Below are positions 2,108-31,602 of a DNA stretch of 64,000 nt, one piece after another. Both the position numbers and the translations under genes were made by a program. Source of the stretch: Hydrolagus colliei. Taxonomy: Eukaryota. How positions within the stretch are numbered: position 1 is the stretch's first letter; every line of letters begins with the position of its first letter. The stretch is taken from NCBI GenBank assembly GCA_035084275.1, contig CM068745.1, positions 59,954,001-60,018,000 of the forward strand. The letters are read 5' to 3'. The notes beneath the pieces are model-generated. The model was not told the DNA's origin and searched no databases. It was given only the letters and a program-made list of their open reading frames with translations.

Positions 2108-3859
2108 CTGCAAGGCCACACTGAAATGTTGTGAGTTGAAGAATGATGTGTTTGCTATGTCACAGGGTATCTCAAACAATGTCATGCCCAACTCTAGGAC
2201 CACTCAACCAATAAGCTTTAGCTTGCAGTGTTAACTGGAGCAGAATGGGAATAATCCTTGCCTCTCCAATTGACTGTTCTGCATCTCCAAGTCCAATGTT
2301 TGTGTTAATATAACCAGTGAAAATTATCACACTGAATGTAATATTTTTACCCAAAAAATAAGCCAGTGTATAAATAACAGAGATAATGGCACCTGTCACC
2401 CCATCCACACGCACACATTTCTTGTGCAGGGCTATTGATATCAAATATTATAGTGCCTCTTGCCCTACTCCAAAATCAGTGAACTCAGCTTTAGACCAAG
2501 GAATTGAATTTCAACATGTCATGCCAATCTGCAGAGGTTCACAGGTTAGTTTCGATCAGGCATATTCTTAACAGGTATCTGAATTTTACATGAGCTGAAT
2601 CTAAAGCCTGAAAGCTCTCCCAAATGCCCATCAACCAGCTGTCATATAGGAGTGTGTAACTAATAGATTCCTTGGGGAAACTGACGTGGTAAACATAATT
2701 TCACTCCACTCCAGTGCATATTCTTGGGTTTACACCTTAATCAAATCAATCTGAAATACACTCCTGTGATGTTAAACATTCCAGTCTAATACCATTTGAA
2801 TGCGTAAGACACAGGCTGGCCAAAACAATGACTTCAAAGTTGGCATAAGACCCTGCAAATAATAAATTACAATTGATTCTGGTACATTCTATGAAGTAAC
2901 AGAACTGATCTCTATTGTGCAATGACCTGCAGCTTCGAATTGTTAAATTGCAACACAGGTATTCTTATCATTCTGATACCTATGTCTGTAACATCCAAGC
3001 ACTGGCATTATGATCCACAGAAATGGTCAGAATTCATTTATTTCATAGTTTTTGTCCACCACTTCTCTTCTCGGCAGATTTGAAGATAGTTTTCACAACA
3101 ATTAATTTCCATTCACATTTCTCATGCCGGTCAAGCAAGAAAATTAGAATTCTTCTCGTTTATGATTCATTTTTGATTCTGACAGGCTACTAATCCAGAG
3201 TGACCTAGACAAGGAATTCACTAATCTGCTGATGGCAGAAAACAAAATGTGACTGGACATAAAGCAAATTACTTCATTAGTGACACAGCACATGGTACCA
3301 TCAGAAATTTAACTGGCATTTCGCAGCACATGGCCATGTAATTTATCATTAAAGACCAGAAACAGAAATGAGAATTTCAGACAGCTCAACAATGCAGTGA
3401 AGGATGCACTTATTAATTGTATATGTTTTGCTGTTAGACCACAGGCAGAAAAATACCACTTTTTCTCAGGGTGCAAAAAATTGTTGTGATTACCTCAGAA
3501 ATATTGTCAATATAGAATACTTCACATAATCTGGAGCAAGTTACAAAGCAGTAAAATGTTGAAGTGTATCATATTGATGGGGTGGGTGGTGGGTGCAATG
3601 TTGAAGTTGTTTTCTTGTTCAAATGAATGTTAAACTGAGCTCTCACCTCCATATTCTGGTGGACATTGCAGATTCAACGGCAACATTTAGAAGGAAGTGA
3701 GTTTCTCCAAGGTCATGTTTTTTGACCTCAGCCATGTCCAAATTGGCTGCTGCGTTTGCCTTAAATTAAACAGGTAAAACACCCTTCAGCAATACCATGT
3801 GAAGCTCAAGAGCTCTTTGTTTCACTGAATTAAATGACTCAGAGACATAGAGGTGTACA

Positions 3860-4368
3860 AGATTCTCAATGAGATGACAATGTAAATACAGATGCCACAG
3901 GATATTAGAACAAGAGGGCATAGTTTTAGAATTGTAAAGGTCAATTTCAAAACAGATACCAGAACGTGTTTCTTTACACAGAGGATAGTCAATGACTGTG
4001 ATAGGTTGCCAGTAAAGATGGTGGAGGTCAGGACACTGACTCATTTAGAAAGAAGCTTGATACTGTGAGGAGTGGGGCGGTCGAGAGGGATGAGATCAGA
4101 TGAGTTGAAGAGTCTTCTTCATCCAGACTAATTTTATGATCATTTGACATGCAATGTTGCAGCACACAACCAGCTTTACTTTTTTGTAATAGAAATAAAG
4201 AGGTAGATCCATTATGGATTTGAAAAGGGATGTAGAAAGATATTTGGAACACAGAGGTTTGGATGCATATGAGGATTGACTAAACAGCTTGCTCTGACAG
4301 CCAGAGCAATCTCAATCGACTGAATGGCCTCCTTTTGCACTGTGCATTTCCCACTGTTTTATGATTCT
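3860..4368 (+). mobile_element. Two degenerate CR1 LINE 3' fragments
   Basis: AGAACAAGAGGGCATAG (TRGH-like) and TTCTTTACACAGAGG (FFTQR) motifs; GACTGAATGGCCTCCTT...TATGATTCTA CR1-type 3' end. Confidence 0.6.
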
Positions 4369-4459
4369 AAGTGAACAATATCTTTAATTTTAGCAGTTTA
4401 ATAGATGCTCGATTTTTGCTAGCACAAGTAGTGCTGTCATGGCAAACAATAGTGCAAAG

Positions 4460-5224
4460 TAGGGTCCAGTGATATATCGATATATCGCTAAAACCCGATA
4501 TAATTTTCATATCGATACGCCGATATAGGCATTTCAAAAATATCGATATATCGAAAAGTCGATATATCGAGGGGAAAAAATCGGAATGCGCGCACACTGA
4601 ACTACAAGACCCAGAATGCTCATCTCTATACACAATGCACAGACCGAGGTGCAAAGCCGCCATATTGTATTCATATCCTAGAATACAATAAACAGGTATG
4701 CAAGGGGTGAGGGGAGAGAGACGGCTGGGGGGGGGGAGGGGCAGAGAGACAGCGGGGGGGGGGAGGGGGAGAGAGACGGCTGGGCGGGGAGGGGGAGAGA
4801 GATGGCTGGGGGGGGGGAGAGAGAGAGACGGCGGGGGGTGGGGAGCGGGAGAGAGACGGCTGGGTGGGGTGGGGGGGGAGAGGGACAGTGGGGGGGGCAG
4901 ATGGGAGAGAGGGACGGCAGCAGGGGGGGGATGGGGGGGAGAGACGGGGTGGATGTGATAATATACAGATAGATAGAGATGTGGGGGATGTGAGGGAGGA
5001 AAGAGACACAGAGACACAGGCAGAAAAACACAGAGATGGAGAGAGTGAGTGTGAGAGACACAGAGCGAGAAAGATATTTACCTCCTGAGGAGATAGGCCC
5101 CGAATGCGCGCACGCCACGCGCATGCGCAGTATGAAAAACCCCAAAATATCAATATTTCGGTATGTCTCGATATGAGCCCATCGATATATCTAAATCGGA
5201 AAATTTTCATATCGATGGACCCTA
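4460..5224. mobile_element. Non-autonomous hAT DNA transposon (MITE), copy 1, with internal VNTR
   Basis: Termini TAGGGTCC...GGACCCTA; perfect 8-bp TSD GTGCAAAG (4452-4459 and 5225-5232); subterminal ATATCGAT repeats; 4 copies in window. Confidence 0.92.
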
Positions 5225-5294
5225 GTGCAAAGTAAGTCCCAAGGGTTCAAACCTAGAATCCCCAAATAAAAAAATCTATATTTTATTTTGGTCA

Positions 5295-5685
5295 ATACAA
5301 ATGTAATTTTATTGTTATGTTGTTTCATGTCAGGATCACTTTTCAAAGCACTTCAAAGGATATACTGTGACATGCAGAGACTGTAAGTGTAGGTGAACGC
5401 AGCAGGAAATTTGCACAGAGCCATCACATGAAGTGATGTTTTTTATTTCAGACAATGTTGACCAGGACTCCATATTTATAGTCATGATACTTTACATTGC
5501 ATGTGCAATTCAACAGTGAAGCAGAAATTCAGTTTAACATCTCATCTGGCACCTCTAAACATGGAGCACCCCGCGAACACTGTACACGAGTGTTAGTCTA
5601 GATTGTGACTCAAAAGTACTGACTAGGCCTTGAACTGATAACCTTCAGATACAGACTTGAGAGCACAGTACTACCAACTGAACTA
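5295..5685 (-). mobile_element. Old Deu-domain tRNA-SINE
   Basis: Reverse L2-like tail, GTTTAACATCTCATC Deu core, degenerate tRNA head (CTTGAAC...CCAACTGAACTA). Confidence 0.6.
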
Positions 5686-7669
5686 TGCTGATGCACCATT
5701 TTTTGAGTAAGGCCATTGTTAGACTCATTTCTGCCCCATTATAATATCATTATGTTCATCCTGATCCAGTAGAATTTGCTAATAAACTCATCCATTTCGA
5801 TCCAATGAAATAAGCTTACCAAACATGTGGACAAGATAGAATGTCTAGATTTAAACATAATTGGACAGGTTTAATAAGTACTAAAACAACTGCTGTCGAA
5901 TAACGGAGTTCATACTTGTATTTTAAAGGGATAATTGGCATCTCTGGGGATTTCTCAGTATGGCTCCATTCCACAAATTCAGTTATGGAGCTGTTGTGTT
6001 GGACACTGTGATTTGTTTCCACTATAGCAGGTCAGCTGCGACTTGTGCTGTGAATTATCTTCTCATTTTTTTCTTCAATTTTTTTTAAGGCCAGCTGAGA
6101 AATAATGCATTGTAGAACCAAATACAATTGGCAACACAATTATATAATTGCACTGTCAACGCTATCAGTACTCCCTCCTCCAATATACAATACAACCTCT
6201 GCCAACATAGCATTCAAACATTATCCAAATTACAAATTTATTTTAATGTGCTAAAGGTGAAATAATTATTTAATTTCATAAACAATCTTTCAATTGAATA
6301 TTGCTCAAACTGAAAGCATTAAAAATAAATCAGAACTATATTAAAGACTGTGGGGGAGTATTCAGTACCAATAACGTTGGCATGTTATATTAACTATACT
6401 TAATAAGCAATTTGACTTACGACGCAATTCAATCCAGTTGAAGTGCATGATATTGTGTCCTATCCAAACCATGATTGTTTCATCCTCATTTTCATCATTT
6501 CACAGGATTTGCTGTTGTGTATTTTAAACCATGCACTACCCTGTTAAAAGAAATCTCACACGCTCACGTTCAAATTATTAAATGAGAAATGTACATCATA
6601 TGCTCAATCCTCAGTCTTGCATAATAGCTGGACCCAAAGAAAATATGATAGTTGTTTTTCCCAATTATAGAGATACAACATCTGAGTGCTGCTAAACATG
6701 GATTACCAGTTAACTGATTTGGTGTTCTGTAAAGCAATGTTCAAAAATACATGCTGCAGAATAAAAAAAATCAGGTCTGCTAAGTGTCAAGCTCGATAGT
6801 GACAATTGCTTTTTTACCCTAGTTGCGTCAAAGGTCAAGTTATTGCCTAAATATGCTTCTAGGAATGGATTAAATGACGCAATATTTTAATGATAGATTT
6901 AAGCCAATTCTGAAAACACGGCCATCTAACCCTGGATACCCAGTGACCACAGCTGATGGTTAGTTTATGGTTGTATAGCTAACAAAAAATAGTTTACTCT
7001 ACGATTAAACACATCTTCACAGATTAACATCTCTCATAATGAGTTACACAGAGAACATACACAGGAATTTGGAAAGAGTATAACAGGAAAGTTCTAAGCT
7101 ATGTACAGTATATATCCTTCATCATTTTACAATTTACAAATCTAAACCTACAGTACAAGGATAGTTTTCTGGGAAGAGCTGCATTTCCATTGATTGGGCA
7201 GCCAATTGATTATTGCATAAAACGAGCAATGTACAACAGTAAGTCATCACATCCTTGATCCAACAAGCTGCATGCATGCCAATTCTGCACAGAGTGCAAA
7301 GGGGATCTTCCACTTTATCCCCTACAAAAAGAATTGTCACAATTGCTGTGAGAAGTGAAACAAATTAGTGGATTCATGGAGGATTCTACAATTAGTTAAT
7401 CTTATTAAATAGCATATGAGCTGAAAAGATAAATCACTTTATGATACCAGGCTCCTAAATTGTATCAAAATTGTATCCAAGGAGTGACACATTAGTTTTC
7501 CATTAATCTGAGCAATAGAAATTCCACAATAATGACTTTCCATATCCTGCTTATTGTCATTGACCTTTCCTACCACTGTAGCTTCCTTGGAATTATTTGA
7601 TTTCTCTTTCCTTTGTTTGAAAATACCTCTTCCACAACTGAAATATTGCACCTGGTACCTTTATTTCTC

Positions 7670-7872
7670 TTCATAGATTCATACAATTATACAGCACAGA
7701 AGGAGACCATTTGGCCCATAGTGTTCGTGCCAGCTCTTTGAAAAGAGCGATCCAAATCAATCCCACTCCCCCGTGCTCTCCCCATAGCCTCACAAACTTG
7801 TTCTCTCCAAATAATTATCTATTCCTCTCTTAAAAGTTGTTATTCAATCGGCTTCCATAACCTTTCAGGCCA
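7670..7872 (-). mobile_element. CR1 LINE 3' end
   Basis: CATAGATTCATA tail followed by CAGCACAGAAGGAGACCATTTGGCCCAT; homologous to 47467-47720 and 57185-57450. Confidence 0.8.
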
Positions 7873-8691
7873 GAAATAATTATTCTAAACTTTCCAATTC
7901 TTCTTCACACATAATGAAATCTACTAGCTCTGACTTCCTCTAGACTGAAATTTTCATTCTTGGCAACTATATGGTCACTCTCAACAAAGTTCCACTGCTT
8001 TTTCATTAACCAGGTGAGCACCGATGGTAAATCCTTAGCTCTTTTGGATGACCTTTAATATGCTGTTGATCAGTCAACCCATATCACTTGTCTACCCAAT
8101 AATGCAATGAATTTCCTGGGACTTTTGCTCACTGATGCACCATCGTGTTTATAAATAGTGAAGGCAATATTGAATAGTGTTTGATGAGCATGAATTTGAA
8201 GAAAAAACATGTGTTGTTCATTTCCAAAGTGTGGGCCAAGGAGTGATAGGATAACTATCTCTTTGATAACTATGAGCTGTACAGAAATTCCTGTTCCCAG
8301 AGGTTCTTTGATTTGGGTACATTTCAACACACTCCTGGAAAAAGCACTTGGATTATGTTAACAAAGCTACTCAAACACAAGCACAGGTTCATGACTTTCA
8401 TTTGGACCTCAGTCAATCTTAAAACACAGTAACAAAATGTAAACTAAAACTCAACTTTACTAAGGAAACTGAAGAAAATTCCAGGTGAAAGAAGTTCTAA
8501 TAGGAACTTTCAGATGCAAAAAAACAAAGTGAAACATGTCAGTTTGGTCCAAAAGCATTAATTTAACAAAAATATCACAAACGCAAACACCAGAGACTAA
8601 CGCCCTTTTTCGTTTCCAAGTTTCATAACAAGCTTGAGCTTGTGTAAGCCATTTATTAATGGATATTTCCCTTGTTTCCCCAGCTCACTCT

Positions 8692-9008
8692 ATAATAATC
8701 CTTGCATTTTGATATAACGCTTTTCACATTTTATCGACGTCTCAAAGCACTTCACAGAATATACTGTAAAGTGAATTGACTGTATATTTGTGGGCGAAAT
8801 GCAGCAACCAGTTGTGCATAGCAGTGTCCCACAATCAGTCGTGGATTGAAATGACCAATTATTATTATTGTGCTTTTTTTGGAGGGATTATTATTAAGCG
8901 TACTGAGTAAGGAAACTTGCCCAAGGTTTCGCCCTGATCTGGCTGGATTCGAACACAGGTCTCATCCTTGTAAGGCGAGTGCTCTAACCATTGAGCTATA
9001 GGAGCTCC
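8692..9008 (-). mobile_element. tRNA-derived SINE, full length
   Basis: Reverse complement of the 1778-2107 family; intact B-box (GGATTCGAAC on + strand). Confidence 0.9.
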
Positions 9009-9555
9009 TCATTCTCAATTTAGCATTTGCATAGGAATTATTACAGTCCTATCTCTCTTTATTAGTTTAACTGCAGAGGAGTACTTTCTTGTTTGGGAAG
9101 TAACATCAAAATGCAATTCTGATAGTGGAAGGAAATAATATTGCTGTGTCTGTGGTCAATATCAGTCTCAAGGCAGCTGCTCTGAGAGAGAAGCAGCCAG
9201 AAGAAGTTAGCCTTTGACAAATATTATGCTGATTGTGACACAAGATGCTTAATTCAGTCGCTTCCAGTCTGGGATCAAAAGGTAAGGAGGCCTCAGAGCT
9301 TTATTGTTTGTTGTTTCCCTCAAACTGACAGACACAAAAGGCACAGGTCATCTGAAGCTTGACACCTCTGGAATTGACCATTAACTGCTAGGAATGGAAA
9401 CAAAATTATAGCAGTGAATACATAACACTTAGGAAATGCTATCATGAATAAAACAAGCATTTTGAAACACAGAAAGGGGGAGAACCATCTTCAAATTCAT
9501 TATATGAATTCATTATATTCAGCCTAATGTGAAAATAAACAGGAATATATGATTC

Positions 9556-9870
9556 AATAATATTCCTAGCATTTGATATAGTGCTTTTTATGTCTTCTAG
9601 ACATCTCAAAGTGTTTCATAGAATATATCCTAAAGTAAATTTACTGTATATTTGTGAGCAAAATGAGGCAGCCAATTGCACACAGCAGTGTTCCACAAAC
9701 CGTGGTGGATTGACATTACCAATTTTAATATTGTGGAGTTTTTTTTCTTGAGGAATTATTATCAGGCATGTGGAGTAAATAAATTTGCCCACATTTTCGC
9801 CCTGCTGGGAATCAAACCCAGGTCTCTCGCTTGCAATGCAAGTGCTCTAAACACTGAGCTACAGGACTCT
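9556..9870 (-). mobile_element. tRNA-derived SINE, full length
   Basis: Same family, reverse orientation. Confidence 0.85.
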
Positions 9871-9881
9871 GAACTACAGCT

Positions 9882-10041
9882 ACTCCTTCGGTACAGAAAT
9901 ACAGAACTACAGATTTTTTTTTAATAGCTCTGATCTCATTAAATGATGGGGATCAAAGGTAAAGATTAACAATTAGAAGCTGATTAGCTCTCACCTGTAT
10001 TTCTCATCATCAGTGCTGTTCAGTCGCTTAAGACAAACTAA
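9882..10041. repeat. About 160-bp segment duplicated at 19582-19736
   Basis: Direct alignment, about 85-90% identical by eye, same orientation. Confidence 0.85.
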
Positions 10042-10422
10042 GCTGCCAATTATTTCATTTGCTGGCAGAAGTCTTTACAATGGTATTAATGTATTAGCTT
10101 GAGGACACAGTGCATCAGTCTAATTTGCTTAGGTTAAAACTAAATCTATTAGTGTAAAATGAAAATAATGATGGGCACTGAAGACAAAGTGTCTGATTTT
10201 TACCAAGTTTTAAATCAATCCTGTATTCTCTGTCTACTGTTTCACCATGACCAACTTAAGCATTCTTTCATCAGCGTAGGATGCTATGGACATACTTTGC
10301 TGATAAGGTTAGCCTGGCGTTAGAGCTCAAAAAGTGCCTAAACAGGAACAAACACCGTGCAATCTCAGATTGGAGCTGAAGTTTTGTGAGTGGACATAAT
10401 AATATGAGGTTTCCTGCTCTGT

Positions 10423-10739
10423 GGAGATCTGTAGCTCAGTGGTTATAGAGCACTTGCCTTGCAAGCACGAGAGCTGGGTTCAATTCCAAGCAGTGTAAAA
10501 GCTTGGACAAGTTTTCTTACTCCACACGCCTAATAATAATCCCTTAAAAAATAATTAATTGGTCATTCCAATCTACGACTGTTTGTGGGACACTGCTGTG
10601 CGCAATTGGCTGCTACGTTTCACCCACAAATCCAGTCAATTCACTCTATAGCATATTTTGTGAAGCACTTTGAGATATCTAGAGGATGTAAAAAGCACTA
10701 CATCAAATTCAAGGATTATTAGTATTATTATTATTATTA
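10423..10739 (+). mobile_element. tRNA-derived SINE, full length
   Basis: TAGCTCAGTGG A-box, GGTTCAATTCC B-box, (ATT)n tail. Confidence 0.9.
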
Positions 10740-11423
10740 GATCCCCGGGTCCTCTTTCTCTTATGCTTTGACAGCCATTTATTTACCTAAAAGATTAGTT
10801 TTATTTTTAATGGGGTTCTACTATGCTCTGTGTATTTACACATGGTGCATAATAAATTGCACTGTATCTCTTTATTTAGTTCAGTTTTTTTAAGAAATGG
10901 TAATTTTATTTACCCCCACCCCCACTTTATCAAAAATACCTTTCTCTTAAATGATCACGACAGTTATATTTGTGACAGATAAAGCTATTTATCAAAGTAC
11001 TTAAATCACCTCATATGACAAACGATAAGAGGAATTTGTCAGTTAGATGATACAACTGAGCTGATATAAGATAATAGAGAGCGACAGCTTGCTATCCTGC
11101 AGTTGCGATCTTAGAGAACAACGATGATAAAAACATTCTACCAAGTGAATCTTGCTTTCCTTTGCGGAAATATCGGACAGTGGCATTTTTAGATCATGAG
11201 GATTGAACCGTTTTATTTAACTGTGGTTTTCATTTCTGTCTTACAACTTCTAATGACTTATGAATGCTGTTTAACTGTTTCAACTCCAACATCTCTGTAC
11301 CATCACTTAGGTGTATAGAAAGATATCAACCCTCCATAGTAGTGCACTCTTTTCTCAATTAAATACTTTTCTCTGAAGATCAAGACACACCAATGAGAGA
11401 AATGTGTGAGTTTGTTTGCATAT

Positions 11424-12203
11424 CAATGTCTCCATTCACATGGCTCTCACCTCCTCCATCTTCCCGGTCTCCCACTGAAACTCTCCGAACCTGTGCGTAA
11501 CCTTTGCGTCAGGTTCGAGCCCCAATTGTCCTTCCTCCCCCACATTCAGTACCTCACCAGCATCACCTTCTTCCACCTCCGACGGATCGCCCGTCTCCGG
11601 CAATACCTCAACCCAAAAGCCGCTGAAACCCTGGTCTACACCTTTGTCACCTCACAGCTGGACTATTCAAGTGCCCTCCTCGCCGGTCTCCGCTCCACTA
11701 CAATCCATAAAATCCAACTCATCAAAAACTCTGCTGCCCGCATATTCACCCGAACCAAATTTTGCTCCCCCATTACCCCAGTCCTTGCCAGACTTCACCG
11801 GCTCCCTATCCCAGAGAGGATCGACTTCAAGATCCTTACCCTTGTTTTCAAATCCCTCCACTCCTCTGCACCCCCCTATCTCTCTGACCTCCTCTCTCCT
11901 CAAACCAGCTCCCGTTGCCTTCGCTCCATCGGGTCTGGCCTTCTCCATGTCCCCTGAATCCTCCGCTCCATCCTCGGCGGCCGGGCTTTCAGCCACTATG
12001 CCCCGAGGCTCTGGAATTCCCTTCCTCACTACCTTCGTCTTGCCCCCTCTTTTCTCAGTTTCAGGTCCCAGTTGAAGACCTTTCTCTTCAACCGCGCGTT
12101 TGGTCACCTTTCTGCCCCTGGCTCAGTCCCGGGATCCGCTATTGTGAAGCGCTCAGAGACGCCGTCCAGCGTGGAGGGCGCTATATAAATTGAAGTTGTT
12201 GTT
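11424..12203 (+). mobile_element. 5'-truncated L2 LINE (ORF2 C-terminal relic plus 3' UTR)
   Basis: ORF 11406-11957 has L2 motifs FFHLRRIARLR, FVTSQLDY, LHRLPIPERIDFKI; (GTT)n tail; probable TSD (TT)GCATAT at 11416-11423 and 12202-12209. Confidence 0.92.
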
Positions 12204-12547
12204 GCATATGCGTTTCAGACCTAAAATCATATAACATTTAGCAGTAAAAATTTCTTGCACTATGAATATGGCCTGAAATGCAGTGTTTCCTAATGGGTTT
12301 ACAAGTCATCATGATCAAGACAGTAGAGGCAAGTGAAGAAATGTGAATGGCTACCAGATGCTTACAGAGATATCTTATGCCTGTACTGTTTCTTTTACAT
12401 AAAGTTGTAGCAGCATTTGTCACTTTGAAGATTTAGCAGAGGAAGCATTTGGGGAAAATAATACCCTTTTCTATTCTACATCATGCTATGCTCAATTAGA
12501 TTAGCTACTGTGAACTGTGTGTGGCCTGAAGATCACTAAAACCACAT

Positions 12548-13288
12548 TGTGTCTTAATGAAATCTGCACTGGTAAGCAGGGATTCTTCTATTAATCTTGC
12601 AAGCCAAAGCGCTCATGGTTGGTCCTAGTTGGACAAGCAGTGGGAAGCTTGTCAGACAGGGCCATGGCAAGTTTTTTGATTATACTATAGATGGTTAAAC
12701 TCTAGCATTACCCTGTTGCAAACATTGGAGACTCTAAGCTTTGCCAAGTTGCATCTAACACTCTCCAAAATTAGGTAAGCAGGGTGCATCCCTCCAGGGA
12801 GAGAGTTTAGGATCCTTTCCTGAAACATGAAAATTGCTATGATTGGGTAGCATATACATATGGAAGTCTGATTTGCACAATCTTAACAATAATAATCATC
12901 TTTGCAGTTAATGTAGTGCTTTTCACATCTTCTAGACATCTCAAGCAATTCAAAGAACAAACTGTAAAGTATATTGACTGTATTTTGTGGAATCATCTTA
13001 AGCATGATGATTCATTTCTGAATGTGTCAGATAGTTGGCTGACTAGAAATAATAAATAGAAAAATAAAACAATTTCCTGAATTGATCTTCTTCATTATCC
13101 AGAGTAATTAAGTAGATCACACCATATTCTGCAAGTTAGCTTTCAGTCTTCTCAAAACTTTCTCTCACTAGAGAATTAAGCTTCAAGATAATTATTCTCA
13201 CCTGTGTCTTTTCACGAAATCTGTATTGGAGAGCAGGGATTCTTCCTTTAACCCTGCAAGCCAAAGCCTTCATAGGTAGGATGGTCCT
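12548..13288. repeat. Two diverged copies (12548-12626, 13203-13288) of an 80-bp hairpin-forming unit
   Basis: Shared blocks TGTGTCTT, GAAATCTG, AGCAGGGATTCTTC, TGCAAGCCAAAGC, TGGTCCT. Confidence 0.75.
12888..12990 (-). mobile_element. SINE 3' tail fragment
   Basis: Reverse of the (ATT)n/L2-like SINE tail. Confidence 0.7.
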
Positions 13289-14080: not shown

Positions 14081-14159
14081 AAGGAAGGAAGAAGGAGAAA
14101 TAATTTGTAACACAGGCTATTTGGTGGCAATTCAATACATAAGTATAAATGTAAACTTA

Positions 14160-14351
14160 AAAAAATGCAGATGCTGGATTTCTGAAACAAAAACAGAAAT
14201 CGCTGGGAACACTCATCAGGACCGGCAGCATCTATGGAGAAAGGAAAAATGAGTAAATGTTTCAGGTCTACGACCCTTTGTCAGAACACGAGGGTGTTCT
14301 GGTGAAGGGTTGACTCACTTTTCCTTTCTCCATAGATGCTGCCTGACCTGC
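14160..14351. mobile_element. Palindromic mini-element of two head-to-head Penelope terminal-repeat (pLTR) copies
   Basis: 14160-14289 is a reverse copy of 29245-29383; 14293-14351 is a forward, internally deleted copy; perfect 14-bp TSD TAAATGTAAACTTA (14146-14159 and 14352-14365). Confidence 0.88.
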
Positions 14352-14547
14352 TAAATGTAAACTTACTGGATTCAGATTGCAAGCATAGAACCAAAGGATA
14401 CAAGTTTAAAATTAACAAGCCTCAAGTGAAACTAGAGATTAGAAGAACCTTTTTTTATTTTTACGAGCATTAGAATAGTGGATATATGGAACTAAATACC
14501 AACCTAAAGTTGTTCATGACATGCCAATGAATTCCTTCAGTTTTATA

Positions 14548-14685
14548 CAAAACACAAAATACTGCAGATGCTGGAAGTCTAAAACAAAAACAGAAATCAC
14601 TGGGAACACTCAGCAGGTCAGGCAGCATCTATAGAGAAAAGAAAGTAAGTCAACATTTCAGGTCCACAACCCTTCATTAGAACAC
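14548..14685 (-). mobile_element. Solo Penelope pLTR with hammerhead-like motif
   Basis: Reverse copy of 29245-29383; minus strand reads GTT CTAATGA A GGGTT GTG GACCT GAAA T GTT GAC. Confidence 0.85.
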
Positions 14686-15126: not shown

Positions 15127-15325
15127 GCAGAAATACTGGAGATCCACAACATGTCAATCAACATTTTAAAAAGCAAGCAGGTGAAAGTTCAGGCATTGCC
15201 CTGCATGACTTCTGATGAAGCGTTATGCCTGGAATGTTAACCTATCTTCCTCTTTCAGATGATGATTGACTTGCCATGGATTTTCATCATTTCTGCCTAT
15301 GTTTCAGTTTCCGTCATTTGCATCT
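15127..15325. mobile_element. Older head-to-head pLTR palindrome (divergent subfamily)
   Basis: Forward arm TTCTGATGAAGCGTTATGCCTGGAATGTTAACC...GTTTCAG; 15127-15207 is its diverged reverse complement. Confidence 0.6.
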
Positions 15326-16064
15326 ACGTTTTCTTTATTCCTTTTAATACTTTCCTCCCCAAGTAAATGGTTATTTAATATTTAGCCTGTTAAACTAAAT
15401 CAGCAGCTGGACTCTGCACATTTCTTCCTCAAAAAATAATGTTAATGCATACAACTTTACACCAGTGCGCAGTTTGGCATTACAAAGAAAGTCAAACAGA
15501 ATCACCCCAATTAAGTAGCCAAGCAACCAAAAATCAACACGACCTCTGGGATTCATTCTACAGCTGCAGTAACTGTGTAAAATGGGGAGCTAAACTCTGT
15601 ATAAGCCACATTTCCAGATCGCCGGTGGGTAGTCATTTAAAGATTCAGATCATGCAGTTATCACTAAACTAAGCCAAGGATCATCAGCTTCACATGATAG
15701 TGAAATAATTGAATATAAGAGAAGCAGAAAATATGGGCTTGAAATCTATTTGCCTCTAAGAAGTGGTCATCAAAACATCTGGAAATCATAGACTTCAAGA
15801 AAACACTTCAAACAAATGAGAAGCTGTGAAGATGGTCATTTGTGAAGGTTTGTGAAGCACAACACAGATTGAGTTACACCACAGAAAGAAATTACATTCC
15901 TCAATGTAGCAAGAAACGGATATGCGCTTTGAGCTCCTGGAAAGCAGATGGAAGCAGATCCACCCACTCCTTGGCCTGTACTTTTTAAGCTTATGTGCAT
16001 GCGAATAATAAAAATATACTAAACATGTATGCGGTTGAGCTACGCATATTATTTCAGCACAAAC

Positions 16065-16440
16065 CATAATCCATGTCTTTGATACAATGTCTATTACATT
16101 GGTAGGAAGTCTCAACGCACTTCACAGGATTTACTGTAAAGTGCAATGAATGCGTATTTTGTAGGTGACAGTGGTAGATAATTTTGCAATATCCCACATA
16201 TATGTATATAAAATGAATGACCAATTTTAATTTGGGGATTGTAGGCCAGGATATCGAGAGATGATGCTTATGTTTATCTGACAAACCTTAGTTTATTACC
16301 TCATCACATGGGCAACACCTTCAATAATGCAGCACTTCCCCAGCATCGCACTGGAGCTTCCACCAAGACTGTATGTGTTCCAAATCCCAAATTGTGGCTT
16401 AAACCTACAGCCTTCTGACTCAGAGATGAACCAGGCTCAT
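16065..16440 (-). mobile_element. Old Deu-domain tRNA-SINE
   Basis: Reverse tail; GGCAACACCTTCAATAATGCAGCACTTCCCCAGCATCGCACTGGAG body; tRNA-head remnant. Confidence 0.65.
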
Positions 16441-18589
16441 ATATATCAAATACATATTGTTCCTTGAAATTAACAGCATCTGTTATGCTACTGGTTTAGT
16501 GCTACTCGATAATAGGTTCAAGTAATAGGTTTGCCTACCTACGTATTTCATACTTTAATGCTAACTGTAAGTTAAGAGCGTTTAAATAATTACCATGCGT
16601 GCTATGTCACTAAGATATCCATTTTTATGGTTATTGCCTGGAAAAATGGGAAGCAGGTGAAAGTGAACAGTAAATATATCAAGTATTGCATTGAATACAA
16701 TCTCTTTGAAGCACCATAACCCACCCATATATTCTGAATTCACTTCTCATCTACAGTCCTAGTGAAGACCAGGGACTATGGCATAAACAGCAAAAAATAC
16801 AATACGGCTAACATTAACCTTAGCGTGCATTGCCCCAGGAATCATTTATAGCTAGTAAATTCCCCCAACGAGCTATTTGATAAATTAAGCGATTGAAAAG
16901 TCACTGCTGGCAACAACAGAGGTGGAAAATGATTATTCCACCAGATTGCCATGCAATCGTATTTACCACCCAAACAAGAGCCACACAGAAGGATTCATCC
17001 ATTACACTGTTTAAATGCTGAACCATCTAGAACCTTTGTAACTTTTAAACTGGATATATATGTCATGTAATTTATTATTTTTATAAATATTTATATTTTA
17101 GCAGCTGAGTGTCTTTTTCTATCGGCTACATATTTTAATATTAATTATAATTGTAGTTTCATAGAAAGTCATCACATTTCAAGCCTATTGTATTTGAAAT
17201 GCAGCCATAGATTGAATGAAAATCTGGTTGGGTCAACCAGGTTAAAAGAAAATTGTCTGAGGCTCGCAACAATGCCTCATTATTGTACTATTGAGATGAA
17301 ATGTTTTAATAAGCTATTTAAACACAATACGAGGCTCAATCTAGAACTGTAGAGTATTTAAAAAACAGGTCATGGTGTTTCCCAGCATCTGAGGCTGTGT
17401 AAAATACATAAATGTTTAATCAAATGGAATATGCAAAACCAATTGTTTCAAAGGATCATGTGCCTCAGATTACAATGAAATTTTCATAGGTTCAACCGAT
17501 GAAGTGCTGGAGCTTCAGAGATAGAGCCTCGTCTATCATTTGTGGACCCTTGTTATTGCAGCTAGAATTCAAGAGATTTTATGCTATTTTTGGTCTTTTC
17601 TCTGGATGTATCCTGTAACCACATACTGTACTATAAATGCTAACATTTTAGACTTCCTTTCTTCAAATATGATTTACATTTTTGTACCTCTTCTGAAAAA
17701 TATTTTCAGATAAATCAGCAGAATAAAAGTGCACAGGTTCAGAGTCACAAAGGGGAATTTCAGAAAAGTCACAAGGAAGTATTTCTTTACACTGAGAAAT
17801 ACCTGTACTAGAATGGTTAACTAGAATTGTTAACTAGTATTGTTAATAATAATTATAACTAGAATATTTAACCAGGAAGGGTGCTTGGGGCCTAGACAAT
17901 GGACTTGTTTAAGAAACATCTTAGTTATAATACTTTCCAGAATTAGGAAGAAGAATGTATCCCTCTTGGGAGAGAGTTCTAACGATCTATTTCTGTGATT
18001 TCCATATATATTCCATATATTTTGCATGAAATTCTCAAATTGGTTTGAATACTTGAAAGCATGGCAATGGACTTCCTTATGTGTCAGACAAAACAAAACA
18101 GATATTGTTATAATGAGGCCTATTTTAACAAGAGTGAACATTCATGTACGGTAGTGAATGAATAATAACATCTTTCTTCAATAAAGGCGATAGTAATCAG
18201 TTACACACACCCATTTACTTCTTTATTCTCCCATTATTATCTAACATTACAAGACTTCACTCACACAGGGCACTGTAATCTTACAGTTCAACGAAGTACA
18301 TCTTACATAACTGACATTTAGGATAACAACAACACTTACTGATTTAAGCAGTTATTATGATGCAATTTACATTGAAATGGTACCTTTCACATCAAGAGGA
18401 CATCTCAAAGTGATTAACACTGCTGGCTCATCATGCAAGGTAGGGTTGGAAGTTGAAGACAGTGATTACACTGCTGATAGTTCAAATACAATTGATAATT
18501 TAGACATTAATAGAGGAACCAGTAGAAAATTGGCATTGCAATGCATAAGTCGAGTGGTGGTGCTAACAATAAATATATAGATGCTAACA

Positions 18590-18822
18590 CACCTGATAAT
18601 AATCCCTCAAAAACAAAACAATGATTACTTGGTCACCTCAATCTATGGCTGATTGTGAGACACTGTTGTGCACAATTGTATGCTGCTTTTTGCCCACAAA
18701 TATACAATTCATTTTATAGTCAATTCACTTTACAGTATAATCTGTGAATGGCTTTGAGATGTCTAGAAGATGTCTAGAAGATGTGAAAAACACTATATCA
18801 AATGCAACAATGATTATTATTA
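18590..18822 (+). mobile_element. 5'-truncated tRNA-SINE
   Basis: Body and tail of the family, with small internal tandem duplications. Confidence 0.8.
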
Positions 18823-19004
18823 TACACTTGATAGGCTGAATGGCCACATCAGTGCTATTGTTATAATAAATCTATGTGATTAACAGCTGAAATCCAGTGA
18901 GTTCAAGAATAATTTTCTACTTCTGCTGAATTATATCAATTATAATTCTTCTTATAATTGATATAATTCAAAATTCTCAGAATAGAAAGCATCAATGATG
19001 ACTC

Positions 19005-21080
19005 TGGCAACAACAACTGGCACTTAAATAGTACTCTCTCGATTTGTACTCTCCATGCAGGGTAGCATCTTAGATCACTTAACATTAGTGCAGCCTGACT
19101 CAGAGCCGCTGGGGGAGATAGCTATCAGCACGGTCGAACAGGAAGATTTTCAAGCAGGGATGGAAAAAGAGCAAAGTGGAGGCAAGGCAGAAGGATTGAG
19201 GGAGAGTGTTCCAGAGTATTGGGGGCATAGAGGCTGAAAGCGCAACCTTCGATGATGGGACAGAGGGTGCGAGGAATAAGCAGGAGCCCTGGGCCAATCA
19301 AGCAGAGGCACCAGGTGGTGAATTGGGGTTTGAGGAGGTTGGAGAGGTAGGGAGGTGCCAGAGAGTGAAGGGATTTGAACACGATTATGAGGATCTTGAA
19401 ATCAATTAATTGATGGGGAGCCAATGGAGCCTGGCCAGAATTCCTGATGTGTGGGTACAGAGTTTGGTCCAGGTAAATATGTAGGCACCAGAGTTCTGAA
19501 TGAGCTGGATCTTTTGAATAGTGAAGCTGGGGAGACCGTTAAGGAATGTGTTTGAGTAATCCTGTCAGGAGGTAACAAATCACTCCTTTGGTAATGGAGA
19601 ACTACAGAATATTTTTTTAATAGGCCTGATCTCATTAAATGATAGGGATCAAAGATAGATGAACAATTAGAAGCTGATTGGCTCTGCACCTGCATTTCTC
19701 ATCTTCAGTGCCTTTCAGTCGCTTAAGACAAACTAATCCTGGTCAGGGATTGGATGTGAGGGAGGAAGCACAGATGGGCCCCAAAATGGATACCTAGATT
19801 GTGCTTTTGTCAGTGTAACAACCACATCAACAACAAAATTACATTTGTATAGTGCCTTTCACATTGGAAGGACATCACAAGGTGTGTGTGTAAGGGAGAA
19901 CCCAAGGCATTTGAGGAACTCAGATACTATACATTGATAACAACCAGGGAGCACTGTTTCTATCTTGTTCATATTCAGCTGCTGGTAGTTTGCACTCATC
20001 CATTGCCTGATGTCTGCCAGAAAAGCTGATAGAACATCAGCAGACCCAGAGTTGGTACTGAAGAAGGCAAAACAGATTTGTGTGTTGTACATGTAATGGG
20101 AGTTATATGTGGAAGTTTACTCAGTGTCTGCGGTTGACATCGTGAAGAGGGAGCATATAATAAGGAAAATAAAAGGGCTAAGGATGGAGCCCTGGGTTAC
20201 CATGCAGGTGACCGGCTACCATTTGTCGGCATGAAATGAAGATGGTTTGTTAAGTAGGACTCGAACCATAGAGTGCGGTGCCATTAAGGTGGATGGAAGG
20301 AGGTGAGGCAGTGGAGGAGGGTGGGGTGGTCAACTGTGTTGAATAGAAAACATGAAAAGCACTATATCAAATGCACAGATTTTTAAAAAAATTATTAGTA
20401 GTATTATTATTATTGCACGCAGCAGAGAGATCCAGGAGAATGAGGAGGCAGAGGGAGCCTTGATCACAAATAGAGAGAACATAGTTTGTGACTTTGACAA
20501 GCACTGTCTCTGTTCTGTGAGCAGGACGAAAACCAGACTGCAGGATCTCTATGAGGGAGTGGAGGGAGAGTTGTGACCATAGTTCACCTGCAGCAAAACA
20601 TTCCAGGACTTTGACAAGGAAGGGTAGGTTGGAAAGAAGATGGAAGTGTGAGAGATTACAACAACAACAAAATTACACTTGTATAGCACCTTTGATAGAT
20701 CAAGGGTGTTTTTTATGAGGATTGTGATAACAGAGGTTTTCAGGGGGTGTGAACAGAGCCTGTGGAGAGAGACTGGTTGACTGTGTCAGCCAGCAGCGGG
20801 GAGAGGAGTGGGGGTTGAGTAACTAGCAACTGACGGGGGAGGGGGTCAAGGTAGCAGCTGAGTACATTGTGGTTGAGAGAGAGGAATGGGGGAAAGGAAT
20901 GTAAGGAAGGAAGAGAAGCAGGAGCCGCGGTAGAGACGGAAGGCGGTGTGAATAGTCTGGGTGGGGTGGAAGGGGACATGTGGGGAGAGTACGAAGGACC
21001 TCTTCCCACTTGGTGTTTGATGTGAGGATAGAAAGGGCTTGAAGTACACAGAGGAGGTGATGGATGTTGGGAAACAGCAT
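19005..21080 (-). mobile_element. Fragmented old L2 LINE (RT region to 3' tail) with nested insertions
   Basis: Minus-strand relics IDFKILIIVFKSLHSLAPPYLS, LADIRQWMSANYQQLNMNKIE, LDPLPRQLL; interrupted at 19582-19736, about 19817-19880, 20352-20412 and 20660-20695. Confidence 0.8.
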
Positions 21081-21984
21081 CTTTGGTTTGTTGTTTTCCT
21101 ATAAGATTACTTTGAAGTAAAAGTCAGTTTGGGCCTGTGAAAGGGAGAGGCGGTTTTAAAAAAACATTAATTTTAACTATTGAGATCTTTTTACTGCATG
21201 ATATATAATAGTTAGGACATAGAGACTATGACTTACAATTGGGTAGACAAAAGCCTTCAGACTGTGAACCACACATTCATAGTATATAGAAAGTCTCATT
21301 GAACTCTGCTCCAAATCTCTAAAGGCCTATAATTTAGGTATCACACATCCCTCTAATAAGAGTTAAACCATAGTGAATATATTAAATACAGAAAGTATAT
21401 AACAATTAATGATCCAGAAGTTCAGCATGTTGGTGGCATTGGTTTAAATCTTGTCTACTTCAAAAGGAAACTGAAGAAATATTGTCCCCAGAGCTCATCT
21501 TAACTTGTATACAGTGAGAAACGGGAATGTCCGAGTCAGGTTCAATAGCCATCACACATGTTTAAAGTTTTTAAAAAGAAAAATGTAATTCCATTATTGA
21601 AGGGTCTGCTGCAAATGAAAATACTGTGATGAAATGCTTCACTGGATTAAAAAATATTATAATAGCTGGAATTGCAGCAGGCATACACGGCTAGTATTCA
21701 ACAAAAAATGACAGCTGATAGTAATTTACATGCAATAGATTAGCTGTATAATTAGTCCCGTCTGACAGATGTGACCTGTTTATTGACCCTTATTGACCTT
21801 GGAAGCAGAACCATGCCTGAAATTAAAAATAATGAACTACAAGGGCCAGGGAAAGGCAAAGAGGGAACAGAACTCCTATTGCATAATAATGAATTGCACA
21901 AACCAATGTTTACATGTTTAATGCCTCACTTTAACTGTTTGTGGTTACTGATCAAATAAGTCCTGTAGTAATCCTTTCTTGGCT

Positions 21985-22400
21985 TCCAATTTCTTTCTTT
22001 CCTCTCTGAAGGTGGTAACTCTTATTGTAAGTCAATGTGGGAATACATATCATTGTGGGCGATGGTTCCACAGACACACCAGATTTTCAAGAACCCACCC
22101 AGGAGGCTGCCCCTTACATGTGAGCTTGGATAATTAATGTTGACAGGTTGAACACAGGAGTGAGGACATCAAAGCCAAGTCCAATTGTACTTCACCCACT
22201 TGAAATTCAGTGTTGCCAGTGGGGTGGGGGTGCAGTGCAGTACTGGATAGGTTCCAGGAGCAGGAACTTTGGCTTATTTCCATTCCCAAGGGCATTAAGG
22301 CCTATTTAGACCCACACTATTTGAAAACCTAATTCTCAACAGATTTGGGTTTAGACCTCCCTGACCTTCTATGGCACATTAATAGCAGTGATTTGTTTTT
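21985..22400 (-). mobile_element. Highly diverged SINE of a different family
   Basis: Resembles a recalled cartilaginous-fish SINE body (ACTGGATAG..CAGGAGCAGGAAC..TGGCT); related head remnant near 2465-2550. Confidence 0.4.
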
Positions 22401-25400
22401 AAACTACTAATAACACCATCAATTTAATAGTACAGTACTTGCATTTGATATCATCTAGCAAATTCTCAAAACAGGGCCTTATTTTTGAAGCCTTGTTTTT
22501 AAGAACTACAGAAAACAGAATTCAACATGAAGGCTGAATTCTACAATTTGTCAAACTGTATGCTCTAATAGAAAATAAATAGAGTATGTCTAGATCCTTG
22601 TGGAATTGCTCTCCATTGATTCTTTAACAGCACACAAACCTGAAATAGTTAATTAAGAACCGTGGCCTTTGTTTGGAGATGATTATCCTTATATTAGTAA
22701 AAAAACACAGCTTTCACTATTGGCATTTCTTTACTTGAATGCAACTAATTAGAATGGACCAAAACTTGGCTATAGAGATGAATTCTCAAACTATGAAGTT
22801 AACTTGCTACAGTCAGTCAAATAGGTTTGTGTTAATCGTATCCTTATTGCAGTAAAACAGTAGCATGTCACGTCAAGCATGAGACACCATTTCACCTCAA
22901 AGTGATACCATCTCCCATAATGTCTTTGGTCCTGAGCCGAGTGGAAAGCTATTGAATTCTTACAAGGCTGAGTGAAGTGCTCAGCAAATTAAATGTCAGG
23001 AGGTTCAGTGGCATTCAATCAATATCTGTAAAGTTTGCAGATAACACAGAACTGCAATCAATAGCGCTTACTGTATACCATACACTGTGTGAAACCCTGA
23101 AGTATTATAGATATTCGAATTGTCCTAAATGCGAGTCACTGACAAGCCTATGAGTAGAGAAATACATCATTAAGAAAAAATATATAATGGCTACCTGCCA
23201 AATGGTACCTCCCAATTTTCCCTAGTTATTTCTTGCAAGGAATATTTCAGGATTGCAAGATTGCTTGAATGCCCTGCCAATCAAGCCTCATCTAAAAAGG
23301 CCCTGTCAAAGGTGATAACTAGGGAAAGTATTTGCAAAACTGTGGAAGGATCCATGTGACATGCTCTCTGGCTGGTGAAGGGAGATTTTGTGTGGACAAA
23401 TCTTCTAAATCCCGAGATGAACTACTATTGTCATATATAACAAGCACATCATAGTCATGAATATGCAATCTGTCAACATGGTGACAAGTCAGAGAAAACC
23501 CTCATGTTACAAGCTTGCAGTTTACTTTGAACTAATTCCACACTGGATATGATGGATATTGACACAAGCTCTCAGACATCAGAGCCATTGCTAGTACAGG
23601 TGTTTAATCTACCAGTACATAACATGCGTTAGTAGAACAGCATTTTTAAAAACAATTCATAGAATATTATTTCCTAACATTCTCCATTCGTTGACCAAGA
23701 AGCCAAATATCTGTTCCCAAGTCTTTGTCTTACTTATTTCTCACTCCATGTGGATATTTTAATTCAGTATAATTATTTATATGAGCAATTGGCTAAGTAG
23801 AACAGGATTTAAAACAAAAACATTTGATTGTGAGTCCACTGTTCAAGTAATTAAACTGCCCAGGATGGAAATTCAGGTATAGCATGATATAGACACAAGG
23901 TAAAGCATTTTATACATGATCAAAAAATTCTGAGCAATGGGAAATAAATGATCATCACTTACCTATTTTCCAGATGGCTTTTGGTGCTAGGATAATTGGG
24001 AAGCAGGACACCACAAGAGCAAATTGTATGGGTTCATCTTAAAGCCCAGAGAGATCCTATTTTTGTTGACTTCACTTATTGCAAATTAGGATTCATAAAC
24101 TGGTATCCAATTTTATTGTGTGATCTGTACTGACAAGTAATAAAATAAACTATACCAGAGTGCGTCAGTCTGATAAATGCACCAGCCTACAACCATTAAA
24201 AAGCAATTCAGATGTTTATTTGATATGTATGTGCTCTGCTTAATAATTATACTTACAACTTTATTGTAGCTAGACGTGAATAAGTGGATAAGCTGAATGC
24301 TTCCAATGTCACTGGAGATCTAATAAGCATTAATCCAGTGTGGGCATTGCTTCCTGGAAGTAATATGGTGAAAATAAATTGTTTAGCGACATAAAAGATG
24401 AGGTAACCAGGGTAACTACTGACATTTTATATTTTTATTTTCAGCTTCATTTGGCACATGCATCCATGCTTTGTTCAAATATTTATTTTGCAAGACGCCT
24501 GTAAAAATATGTTATGTTATCTATGTTATGAAGATATGTTAAATCTCAAGCTTTTCCATCCTTTCAGCTTGGACATATTTAGCAGAAGTCACTGGTTTTA
24601 CTGGAAAAAAAATGGTAAATATTTAATAGAAAAGAAGTTAGGATATATAATGGACAAGATTATTCAGTCCTGAGTAATCTTTTCAGAACTTTTGCCTCTA
24701 AATGCGTTTTGGTCAAAGAAACTATGCTTCACTGTTCAAACCAACCGTTCACTGTTCAAACCAACAAACAGTCCACATCTATGAAACACTGACACCCATT
24801 CACAATCTGTTTCTTTATGTCTTGAATATGACTTCTGCACATCAGTGATCTCAAATTGGTTAGCTCCATACGTGCCAGAGATGGGTAGTGTACGTTTGTA
24901 AATGGGAAATCTCGATTTACTGTCTAGCACCTATCAAATAGGTACACCTATCAAATATATAAATAACGTATGTTTAGTTTTACCATGGTAACCATTCATA
25001 CACAGGATACATGTGCACACTTCAATGGAATACTTTCTGATACAGACAGGAGAATGAATTCTGTATGATGCATGGTTTGCTGAACCTTGTTGCATGAAAC
25101 TTAACTCAAATAATTATGTTTTCCAAGATCAGTGTGATTTACTGACCACACCTTCAATAGATCAATGCAAGGTAGTGTTCCTTTGGCAGTAATATAGAAA
25201 TATTAAAATTCAGGCACTAAAAGTAGAGGTAATAGAATTTAGAGAAAATGGACACAATCGTAAATAATAAGTGAAATTTGTAACATTTCATAACCAATTT
25301 GATATGATATAACATTCAGAAGGGAATCATTCAAAATTTACCCCAAATATCTACATGTTCACTTTTTTATTTTGTTTACAAAGAAGAACCTGAATCAAAG

Positions 25401-26477
25401 ATTGCATTTGTTAGAAGGTTCATTGACAGATATTTGCTAAAGATTAACAGTTTTCTGACTTTAAGCATCTATTTAAACCTGACTAACATCATAGACAGAC
25501 ATAACAAAAGTATCTGAGACACTGGAGTGTTTGGCACCCATTCATTACTGATGTGCTCTTAGCCATCAGTGGAATGCAGTTACTGTTTCTGAGGCTTTCG
25601 TGCTCTGGCCCATGTGATCCGTGGAGAGTTGCATTTCTGAAACAGTAAAATTCAGAAATGAAGTTAAAAGGAAACGTACTTAGCAATGAAATGATTTCTT
25701 GAGCCTCACATGAAAGAAATTCTGCCACAAAGTATTCAAAGGTAGTCTCACTGAATTGAATTTCTCTCATGCTTAACTTCTTAAAGCTGAAGGAATGTAA
25801 GATTTAACAACACGTCTTGAAATTAACTGATTCTGGAAGTATGAATCATATACAGTATCTACATATACTTATCAGAACAAAATAGGCATATGCCATGACC
25901 AAATCCCAAATTTCAAACCTGATCGATTCTAGAATTTTGAGCTGGAACCAAACTTAGAACTTGTTATTGGTCTCTTCAATTCAAGTCATGTAAGATTTAG
26001 CAATTTTCAGTAAATAATGGTAAATTCCCATGTGGGTACTGGTATTTAATGCTACCAGAATCATGTGTGGCGGTGGGCTGCAGGAGTGAAGTGTTTTGCT
26101 TGAAACTATTGTCATCAAACAGAGCTTGTGAAACATCTGTTTTCCAAGTACAGTTTAAAATTAATGATTGAGGATTTTGCTTTCACCACAAAGGAAATCG
26201 GGAGCATTGAGTTTGGAGTGGGAGAGAGGTGAGAATGGAAATCACTTGCAAATACACAGTCACATCACCTCACAGTAAAACTGTGATGCACTATGGGATA
26301 TCCTCCCAACATGAAACAGGATATACCAGAGGGAAGGATTTGTATGCATTGGAAAAACTGGATGAAGTATCAAATGGAAAAGGTTTGAGATTTTGGCTGG
26401 AAATATCTAGAAGAATCAGAAATTAGGTTTTGTGGACCACCTGCATAGAAAAGACTAAATGCTTTGGGTTAAAATAG

Positions 26478-26536
26478 TTGTTGATAATGGTCACACCATT
26501 ATCAACAATAATAATCAATATTGATGATAATTATCA
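26478..26536. repeat. Cluster of three perfect palindromes
   Basis: TTGTTGATAATGGT-cac-ACCATTATCAACAA (14-bp stem), ATCAATATTGAT, TGATAATTATCA. Confidence 0.9.
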
Positions 26537-28945: not shown

Positions 28946-29245
28946 GAGTTTCGCCTCCACCCACCCCCCCACCACCCTCTCCCCCCATCACAATCATAAC
29001 TCCAGACACCCCCTGCCTCTCTGTTGTTTTGTTTGTTCTATCACCACTAAACACCTCTTCTCCCCAGTTTTGTTGAAACCCACCCACTTCTGTTTCTCCC
29101 CCTGAAGCCGTTAACACATATTCAACCCATCAGTTAACACACTCTTTTTTTCCTTTTCCTTTGTCTTTTTTGTCTCTTTTGTATTCCACGTCCTGCCTCT
29201 CCCCCTTTAACGTTCTTAAGAAACCTTTCCCTCCAAACAAGCCCC

Positions 29246-29282
29246 AGTTCTGATGAAGGGTTGTAGATCCGAAACATTGACT
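29246..29282 (+). ncRNA. Minimal type I hammerhead ribozyme motif (this copy probably inactivated)
   Basis: AGTT CTGATGA A GGGTT GTA GATCC GAAA C ATT GACT: helix I AGTT/GACT, core CUGAUGA and GAAA, helix II 5 bp; the consensus ACGT helix-III palindrome reads ACAT here. Confidence 0.75.
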
Positions 29283-31592: not shown

Positions 31593-31602
31593 TTCTTACA
31601 TG

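Follow-up and report, generated by a model that had tools for sequence, protein, structure and literature searches.

A 192-bp insert at positions 14160 to 14351 of the window, the whole stretch of 64,000 nucleotides of Hydrolagus colliei DNA that was analysed, turned out to be a head-to-head pair of short terminal-repeat (pLTR) stubs, likely made in a single event on the RNA of an autonomous Penelope-like element (PLE) and not copied from a palindromic parent. Such stubs and palindromes are best explained by a two-primer run-off model, to which we assign a probability of roughly 75% and in which two cDNAs primed on the two target strands would run off the 5' end of the RNA and be joined.

The insert lies between perfect 14-bp target-site duplications (TSDs) and, as a sequence-only reading of this DNA had claimed, consists solely of two head-to-head pieces of a Penelope pLTR, which are joined through an 8-nt junction. 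The pLTR positions given here are counted from the A of the AGTTCTGA start (+1), which corresponds to window position 29246 in the long copy of the element. The parts of the insert are as follows.

14146-14159, plus strand: left copy of the 14-bp TSD, identical to 14352-14365
14160-14287, minus strand: left arm, subfamily-B pLTR +2 to +130, with the "long" end that includes the tail
14288-14295: head-to-head junction, by sequence and fold two non-templated paired bases on either side of a 4-nt loop
14296-14351, plus strand: right arm, subfamily-B pLTR +2 to +74, tail-less, with a 16-nt deletion
14352-14365, plus strand: right copy of the 14-bp TSD

The arms are not the two copies of about 140 bp with hammerhead cores at the centre that had been described. 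The right arm is only 56 nt long and stops at +74, which is neither of the two usual arm ends and falls about 25 nt short of the usual short end. The left arm reads CTGACAA...GAAACAT, a hammerhead core altered at two conserved places, while stem II and the GAAAC box are gone from the right arm through its deletion. That deletion recurs in just one other arm (L089), an unrelated insertion with the identical 16-nt skip over hammerhead stem II (14296-14312 in the window). The stretch from +9 to +37 is touched by 7 of the 24 internal deletions listed, as if the reverse transcriptase (RT) slipped over a folded stem. The junction was covered without a mismatch by a 101-nt contig of run X1, possibly the source sample; in place of a readable empty-site joint, the contigs of this run held repeat pile-ups. 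The predicted fold of the insert, with -93 kcal/mol on either strand, has the hammerhead sequence base-paired within it, so that the hairpin potential of 14160-14351 is real on paper. The insert had been traced to the Penelope copy at 28116-29383, and of this the Penelope pLTR holds good but the exact copy does not: the arms share 80% identity with the repeat at 29245-29383 and fit a sister subfamily better (score of 208 to subfamily B and 176 to subfamily A). By these similarities, we class the insert as subfamily B and the long copy as subfamily A.

Related copies were found at six other places in the window.

14548-14685, minus strand: solo subfamily-B pLTR, +2 to +137, a separate insertion for which no TSD was found
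15127-15325: head-to-head pair, now decayed, of a pLTR family that is related but older
28116-29383, plus strand: 5'-truncated, broken Neptune-like Penelope copy of subfamily A, with an 8-bp TSD
29863-29910, plus strand: tail-only pLTR fragment, about +88 to +136
31459-31594, minus strand: solo subfamily-B pLTR, about +6 to +137, with a perfect 10-bp TSD
43730-43901: head-to-head pair of subfamily B, left arm +3 to +105 (short end), right arm +57 to +138 (long end)

Both of the additional pairs named by the sequence-only reading proved real. The one at 43730-43901 is flanked by the expected imperfect TSD (10 bp, one mismatch), but its arms span less than the 140 bp or so ascribed to them, and instead of central hammerhead cores there is a right arm with no hammerhead sequence at all. 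The pair at 15127-15325, around which a TSD was searched for and not found, is borne out by its arm-to-arm alignment score of 64, against a shuffled mean of 19 (SD, 3.4; maximum, 30; 500 shuffles). Seven more copies of this older pLTR family were seen (L310 to L316, the last with a possible inverted partner), and no ORF match was found in their flanks.

The parent element, reconstructed by walking upstream in genomic copies, is about 3.2 kb long and is made up of a pLTR, the tail, an ORF with the RT, a CX4CXXC linker, a GIY-YIG region, the 3' untranslated region (UTR), and a second pLTR, in this order. The long copy in the window retains the end of the RT region, the linker, the GIY-YIG region, the 3' UTR, and the pLTR (29246-29383), with its RT-end/GIY-YIG frame broken. 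For the parent ORF, the Atlas returned RT clusters at 0.98, and the RVT_1 match, with an E value of 3.4e-4, fell short of Pfam's cut-off. Pfam gave no GIY-YIG match for two short window frames; the motif VVYCxxCxxCxxxYIG, with two internal cysteines, is present in genomic copies. The element thus has an RT followed by a C-terminal GIY-YIG with two cysteines inside the motif, as well as pLTRs, a partial tandem or inverted copy, a tail of 30 to 40 nt, and TSDs, the features that define EN+ PLEs. The CX4CXXC linker was seen in the window copy and in most of the 15 copies printed. A CX2-5CxxC linker upstream of GIY-YIG is given as the mark of Neptune and Nematis, with Penelope and Poseidon being without it, in the available text of PMC8557442. 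Because of its linker, which is missing from Poseidon, the parent appears to be a Neptune-like element of the Neptune or Nematis clade, and a Poseidon identity was dropped on the same motif. The copies fall into two subfamilies, lying about 4 to 6% (A) and 7 to 9% (B) from their own majority sequences, and ORF-bearing copies are known for both.

The abundance of the stubs was determined in a blind sample of 125 stretches of 10 kb each (1.25 Mb), taken at round coordinates on 18 contigs. It contained 38 arms, that is, 8 head-to-head pairs and 22 unpaired arms, or 30 insertions in total. Scaled to 1.0 Gb, these numbers give about 24,000 insertions (16,000 to 34,000) and about 6,400 pairs (2,800 to 12,600); ORF-less pairs of pLTR against pLTR account for about a quarter of the insertions. 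Retro-insertions of this architecture, made of a Penelope pLTR and devoid of an ORF, are therefore indeed recurrent, as had been proposed from the window. A genome search with the insert as the query yielded palindromes in 40 of the 40 best candidates scored, and 30 loci were read. The full set comprised 283 arms and 59 head-to-head pairs, 51 of the latter coming from similarity searches or the window rather than from the blind sample. Nine loci that duplicated the window or other loci were left out, as were arms scoring below 40, and two loci whose arm runs on into the ORF (L225 and L300) were removed before the comparison of long and short ends. TSDs were found for 34 of the 59 pairs (8 to 16 bp, mostly 14 to 16 bp), 18 of 35 solos, and 1 of 59 controls. 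In pairs and solos alike, many TSDs of 14 to 16 bp have one mismatch 3 to 7 nt from the left end, which may be a trace of primer-template pairing at insertion.

At their 3' ends, 116 of the 283 arms stop near +102 (short) and 157 near +137 (long), the difference being the tail of about 35 nt. Among the 59 head-to-head pairs, one long and one short arm were combined in 51, two long arms in three, and two short arms in one, while four had some other end. The long-plus-short combination was found in 51 of the 53 classifiable small pairs (P = 1.6e-13 against 50%) and still in 24 of 26 (P = 5e-6) once the loci retrieved with a palindrome query were dropped. It was also present in all 11 classifiable ones of 12 inverted copies of 516 to 2,366 bp, and since these long copies follow the same rule, the small palindromes represent the low end of one continuum. 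The two arm ends match the pair of internal sites, one on either side of the tail, at which the RT starts in the anole element; the protein of that element is reported, in the accessible parts of PMC11167929, to cut and extend both DNA strands. A one-sided tail is already in print for PLEs (PMC3846280 and PMC8557442, as far as their available text goes). The short end lies in a pyrimidine tract, +92 to +108 (29337-29353 in the window), which is closed by CAG and resembles a 3' splice site.

The 5' ends pile up at a single site. Eleven of the 22 unpaired arms of the blind sample begin within -3 to +6, four further in and seven further up, an excess of about 21-fold per base (P = 1.6e-11). Starts distributed uniformly along the 3' UTR, the pattern against which the sequence-only reading had asked to be checked, were thus not what the blind sample gave, and because the starts accumulate at one site, the ends are not plain truncations. 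In the 107 arms ending there, the base matches the element at +2 in 89, at +1 in 66, and at -1 in 47, and the match is at background from -2. A T replaces the A at +1 in 24 of these 107 arms and in 2 of 101 that run on; this T may have been added, or a modified nucleotide in the first position may have been misread. Three ORF-bearing copies (L230, L234, and L244) begin at the stub site and continue through the tail into the ORF, and because they share its start, the stub equals the first 100 to 137 nt of the ORF-bearing element.

This site does not coincide with the predicted ribozyme cut but lies 33 nt to its 5' side; to judge by the build of the motif, cleavage would leave +34 as the first base. 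Only 4 of the 283 arms begin within +31 to +37, one of them merely because of the deletion in the reported insert, against 113 within -3 to +6. The sequence around +1 fits the initiator consensus, YYANWYY. An internal promoter with an initiator and a downstream element is described for Drosophila Penelope (PMC2377424, in its available text). Seven of 24 unpaired arms and two of 24 paired ones have a G at -1, the expected signature of a cap; this is weak and not convincing, and for this reason a transcription start at +1 is something that we infer from the DNA ends.

According to the two-primer run-off model, the endonuclease would nick both target strands about 14 nt apart, and each nicked 3' end would prime the RT at one of two internal start sites on the pLTR RNA. 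With the 5' pLTR copy as the template, the cDNA would run off the RNA 5' end after 100 or 137 nt; transcription probably begins at this end, which is an initiator-like site coinciding with the first base of hammerhead stem I. Head-to-head joining of the two cDNA ends would follow, accompanied by minor losses, fillers, or microhomology. A single short cDNA would produce a solo stub, two would produce a palindrome, and one short plus one long cDNA would produce the classical inverted-pLTR element, and the stubs, once inserted, would decay like any dead copy. In LINE-1 twin priming, both target strands also prime cDNA, resulting in an inversion inside the TSD, but there each cDNA is copied from a different part of a single RNA, whereas here both would cover the same part, from two fixed start sites.

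The same palindromes would be formed by fold-back self-priming, in which one cDNA or antisense RNA turns at its 3' end and copies itself, and the endonuclease, cleaving where the tail begins or ends, determines the second end. Self-priming is a published proposal for head-to-head junctions of PLEs, which includes the antisense RNA version (PMC3846280, in the portion available), and it agrees with the clean hairpin junction of the reported insert, with the overlaps of 1 to 6 nt at many junctions, and with the minor variants common to both arms. In 36 of 51 pairs the short arm lies inside the long one; these pairs could have arisen by fold-back copying of the long arm and do not discriminate. 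In 15 of the 51, however, neither arm is contained in the other, the tail-less arm extending beyond the 5' limit of the tailed one by 6 nt or more, and in three longer loci (L110, L114, and L116) the ORF is in the tail-less arm and the tail in the inverted one. Because these 15 pairs and three loci hold sequence specific to each arm, both arms were copied from RNA; sequence unique to each arm is also found in L273. Trimming after joining may cover the small cases but hardly the ORF-long ones, and we regard self-priming as an unlikely origin of the palindromes. In 58 of 59 pairs, both arms belong to one subfamily, and the arms of a pair have minor variants in common in 31 instances, against 11.3 ± 3.2 for shuffled partners, so they usually come from one source, although the sharing of variants could be explained by arm-from-arm copying or later gene conversion as well. 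No A/B chimera at +1, which would be a sign of two RNAs, was found in the 87 cases compared, 86 being concordant and one unclear.

It is likely that each insertion generates its stubs afresh and that they do not belong to a self-spreading family of ribozyme RNAs. Among 51 pairs there were 50 distinct junctions, and a 3-nt microhomology can account for the only signature found twice (L011 and L013); on this count, a palindromic master element was rejected. After Bonferroni correction, none of 132 columns separated the stubs from the repeats attached to a 3' UTR (groups of 53 and 42 arms were compared in subfamily A, and groups of 45 and 121 in B). Both groups had the same majority sequence, except for two CpG sites in B, and their divergences were alike. 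Neither of the marks of a master of their own, a shared junction or diagnostic bases unlike those of the autonomous partner, was thus present in the stubs. Because the junctions are distinct, no column is specific to stubs, and the divergences are alike, we consider each pair a separate event. Solo stubs might nonetheless, at least in part, retain an internal promoter and, through their own transcription and re-insertion, constitute a non-autonomous family of the SINE type. Among the unpaired arms, half are indeed +1 stubs, the initiator and downstream element of Drosophila Penelope are internal (PMC2377424), and pLTRs are said to suffice for mobilisation in trans in the available text of PMC3846280. 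Against such a family speak the matching ages, the lack of a separating column, in a test that would miss young stubs with the sequence of the master if they contributed little, and the lack of palindrome junctions in common, and we find it decidedly improbable, even as a partial explanation.

Templates in the form of ribozyme-cut short or circular RNAs, that is, retrozymes, are even harder to reconcile with the data. Vertebrate retrozymes are reported to derive from PLE pLTRs (10.64898/2026.07.22.740005, in its available text), and the majority sequences of both subfamilies could, as judged from their letters, form a minimal type I hammerhead whose stems are kept between A and B. Hammerheads were recognised here by boxes and stems only (CUGANGA and GAAA boxes, stems I and II, a palindromic 15.2-16.2, and NUH), which the A and B majority sequences possess and the arms of the reported insert do not. 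With Rfam, no hammerhead was found at the gathering score in the window, nor at E ≤ 10 in three well-kept copies. Intact cores were present in 23 of the 97 attached arms, 10 of the 48 solo arms, and 11 of the 62 paired arms, and not one of the 59 pairs kept both cores; moreover, cores on opposite strands cannot act as a dimer on one RNA. An apparent excess of core-breaking CpG change in the palindromes did not persist when the loci retrieved by searching with the insert were excluded. The arms do not begin at the predicted cut, and among all 283 there was no head-to-tail array made of pLTRs only, let alone one in which two or more units in a row contain a complete hammerhead; four same-strand neighbours lay within 600 nt, none of them such an array. 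A retrozyme origin of these inserts, which we hold to be very improbable, is thereby largely refuted; the pairs are a known kind of structure and probably by-products. The "ribozyme-bounded," "retrozyme-like," and "non-autonomous family" of the sequence-only reading accordingly find no counterpart in these counts, and its mobilisation in trans is not needed, because the stub is simply the beginning of the ORF-bearing element. Least probable of all is a reading in which a 3' splice site, and not a transcription start, accounts for the fixed 5' end. A pyrimidine-rich stretch closing in CAG does precede +3, and an intron of D. virilis is described, in the accessible text of PMC4209133, as ending where helix I begins, but there is no common upstream exon, -2 and beyond being at background in the 107 arms, and the match often takes in -1, +1, and +2, which would be intronic.

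The two-primer run-off model may be part of a wider scheme, which we offer tentatively and consider rather doubtful. Penelope RT would normally start near the RNA 5' end, synthesise a strong-stop cDNA of 100 to 137 nt, as in retroviruses, and jump to the 3' pLTR to copy the rest. Both target strands would be used simultaneously, each with its own start site; failed jumps would leave the solo and mirror-image stubs, and misdirected jumps the composite copies. Composites were found at 8 of the 30 loci obtained with an N-terminal query (L220, L226, L230, L234, L238, L240, L244, and L248), four of them inside one TSD. They comprise a 5' part extending to a variable break, 303 to 993 nt into the body, and then the pLTR from +1, and the joint of L238 contains an A run plus a G. 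Such copies look like cDNA that ran off at +1 and jumped to the end of a cut-short RNA. The A/B comparison lends the jump no support, given the concordance of 86 of 87 cases, in subfamilies that differ in age. If true, the strong-stop scheme would provide one mechanism for pseudo-LTRs, inverted copies, and the one-sided tail. No two-primer or strong-stop model for Penelope was found in the literature covered, from which subscription papers were mostly missing, so that absence is not proven.

Much of what these inserts display is in print, namely, inverted pLTRs, one-sided tails, and minimal hammerheads on opposite strands. The inverted-pLTR insertions of EN+ PLEs, as presented in the available text of PMC3846280 and PMC8557442, likewise have a head-to-head inverted 5'-truncated copy, a tail at one end, a TSD around the whole, and solo pLTRs. 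There the tail is called optional and the inversion is ascribed to self-priming or endonuclease resolution, and the origin of inverted and tandem Penelope ends is called undefined (PMC8557442). What differs here is that the smallest, ORF-less form was counted and obeys the long/short rule with a fixed 5' end. The minimal type I hammerheads of metazoan pLTRs (PMC4209133, in part) have the same 4-bp stem I, extra base before stem II, and palindromic ACGT in the place of helix III. The same source ascribes dispersed single hammerheads and opposite-strand pairs 100 to 700 bp apart to truncated PLEs and suggests cleavage and circles as templates, whereas the ends of the inserts described here miss the cut. 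The anole Poseidon element PAc, the in vitro reference, resembles our Neptune-like element in its internal start sites and the use of both strands, and its activity did not need hammerhead cleavage; it is of another clade, and the main text of PMC11167929 is without cDNA joining, run-off, or stub palindromes. Metazoan non-LTR retrozymes are also ORF-less and pLTR related and contain hammerhead-type sequence, and dispersed retrozyme monomers are counted among them too (10.64898/2026.07.22.740005). According to the accessible text of PMC7229834 and 10.64898/2026.07.22.740005, however, they are arranged head-to-tail, with a complete hammerhead per unit and a circular RNA, whereas the inserts of H. 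colliei occur singly or as inverted pairs, and most of their cores are broken. We found no paper on such stubs in cartilaginous fish in the same, largely subscription-free, literature.

The family itself is ordinary, and the stubs are valuable as a fossil record of the unsolved Penelope reaction. Thousands of stubs with fixed ends lead to sharp predictions, namely, that the RNA starts at +1, that each DNA strand uses a single start site, and that run-off and a jump take place. The approximately 6,000 inserts predicted to be capable of forming a hairpin could also feed editing or small-RNA pathways.

Other repeats are frequent in the window. An abundant dispersed repeat has Rfam tRNA matches at 1779-1846, 9797-9868, 10429-10493, 47252-47323, and 62974-63029, most likely the heads of tRNA-derived SINEs, and many pLTR stubs lie within or adjoin repeats with such matches. 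G-rich/C-rich minisatellite blocks with a period of about 24 to 29 nt (4720-4957, 33824-34446, 42624-42947, and 48575-49305) sit inside a second repeat family, which is found in both orientations.
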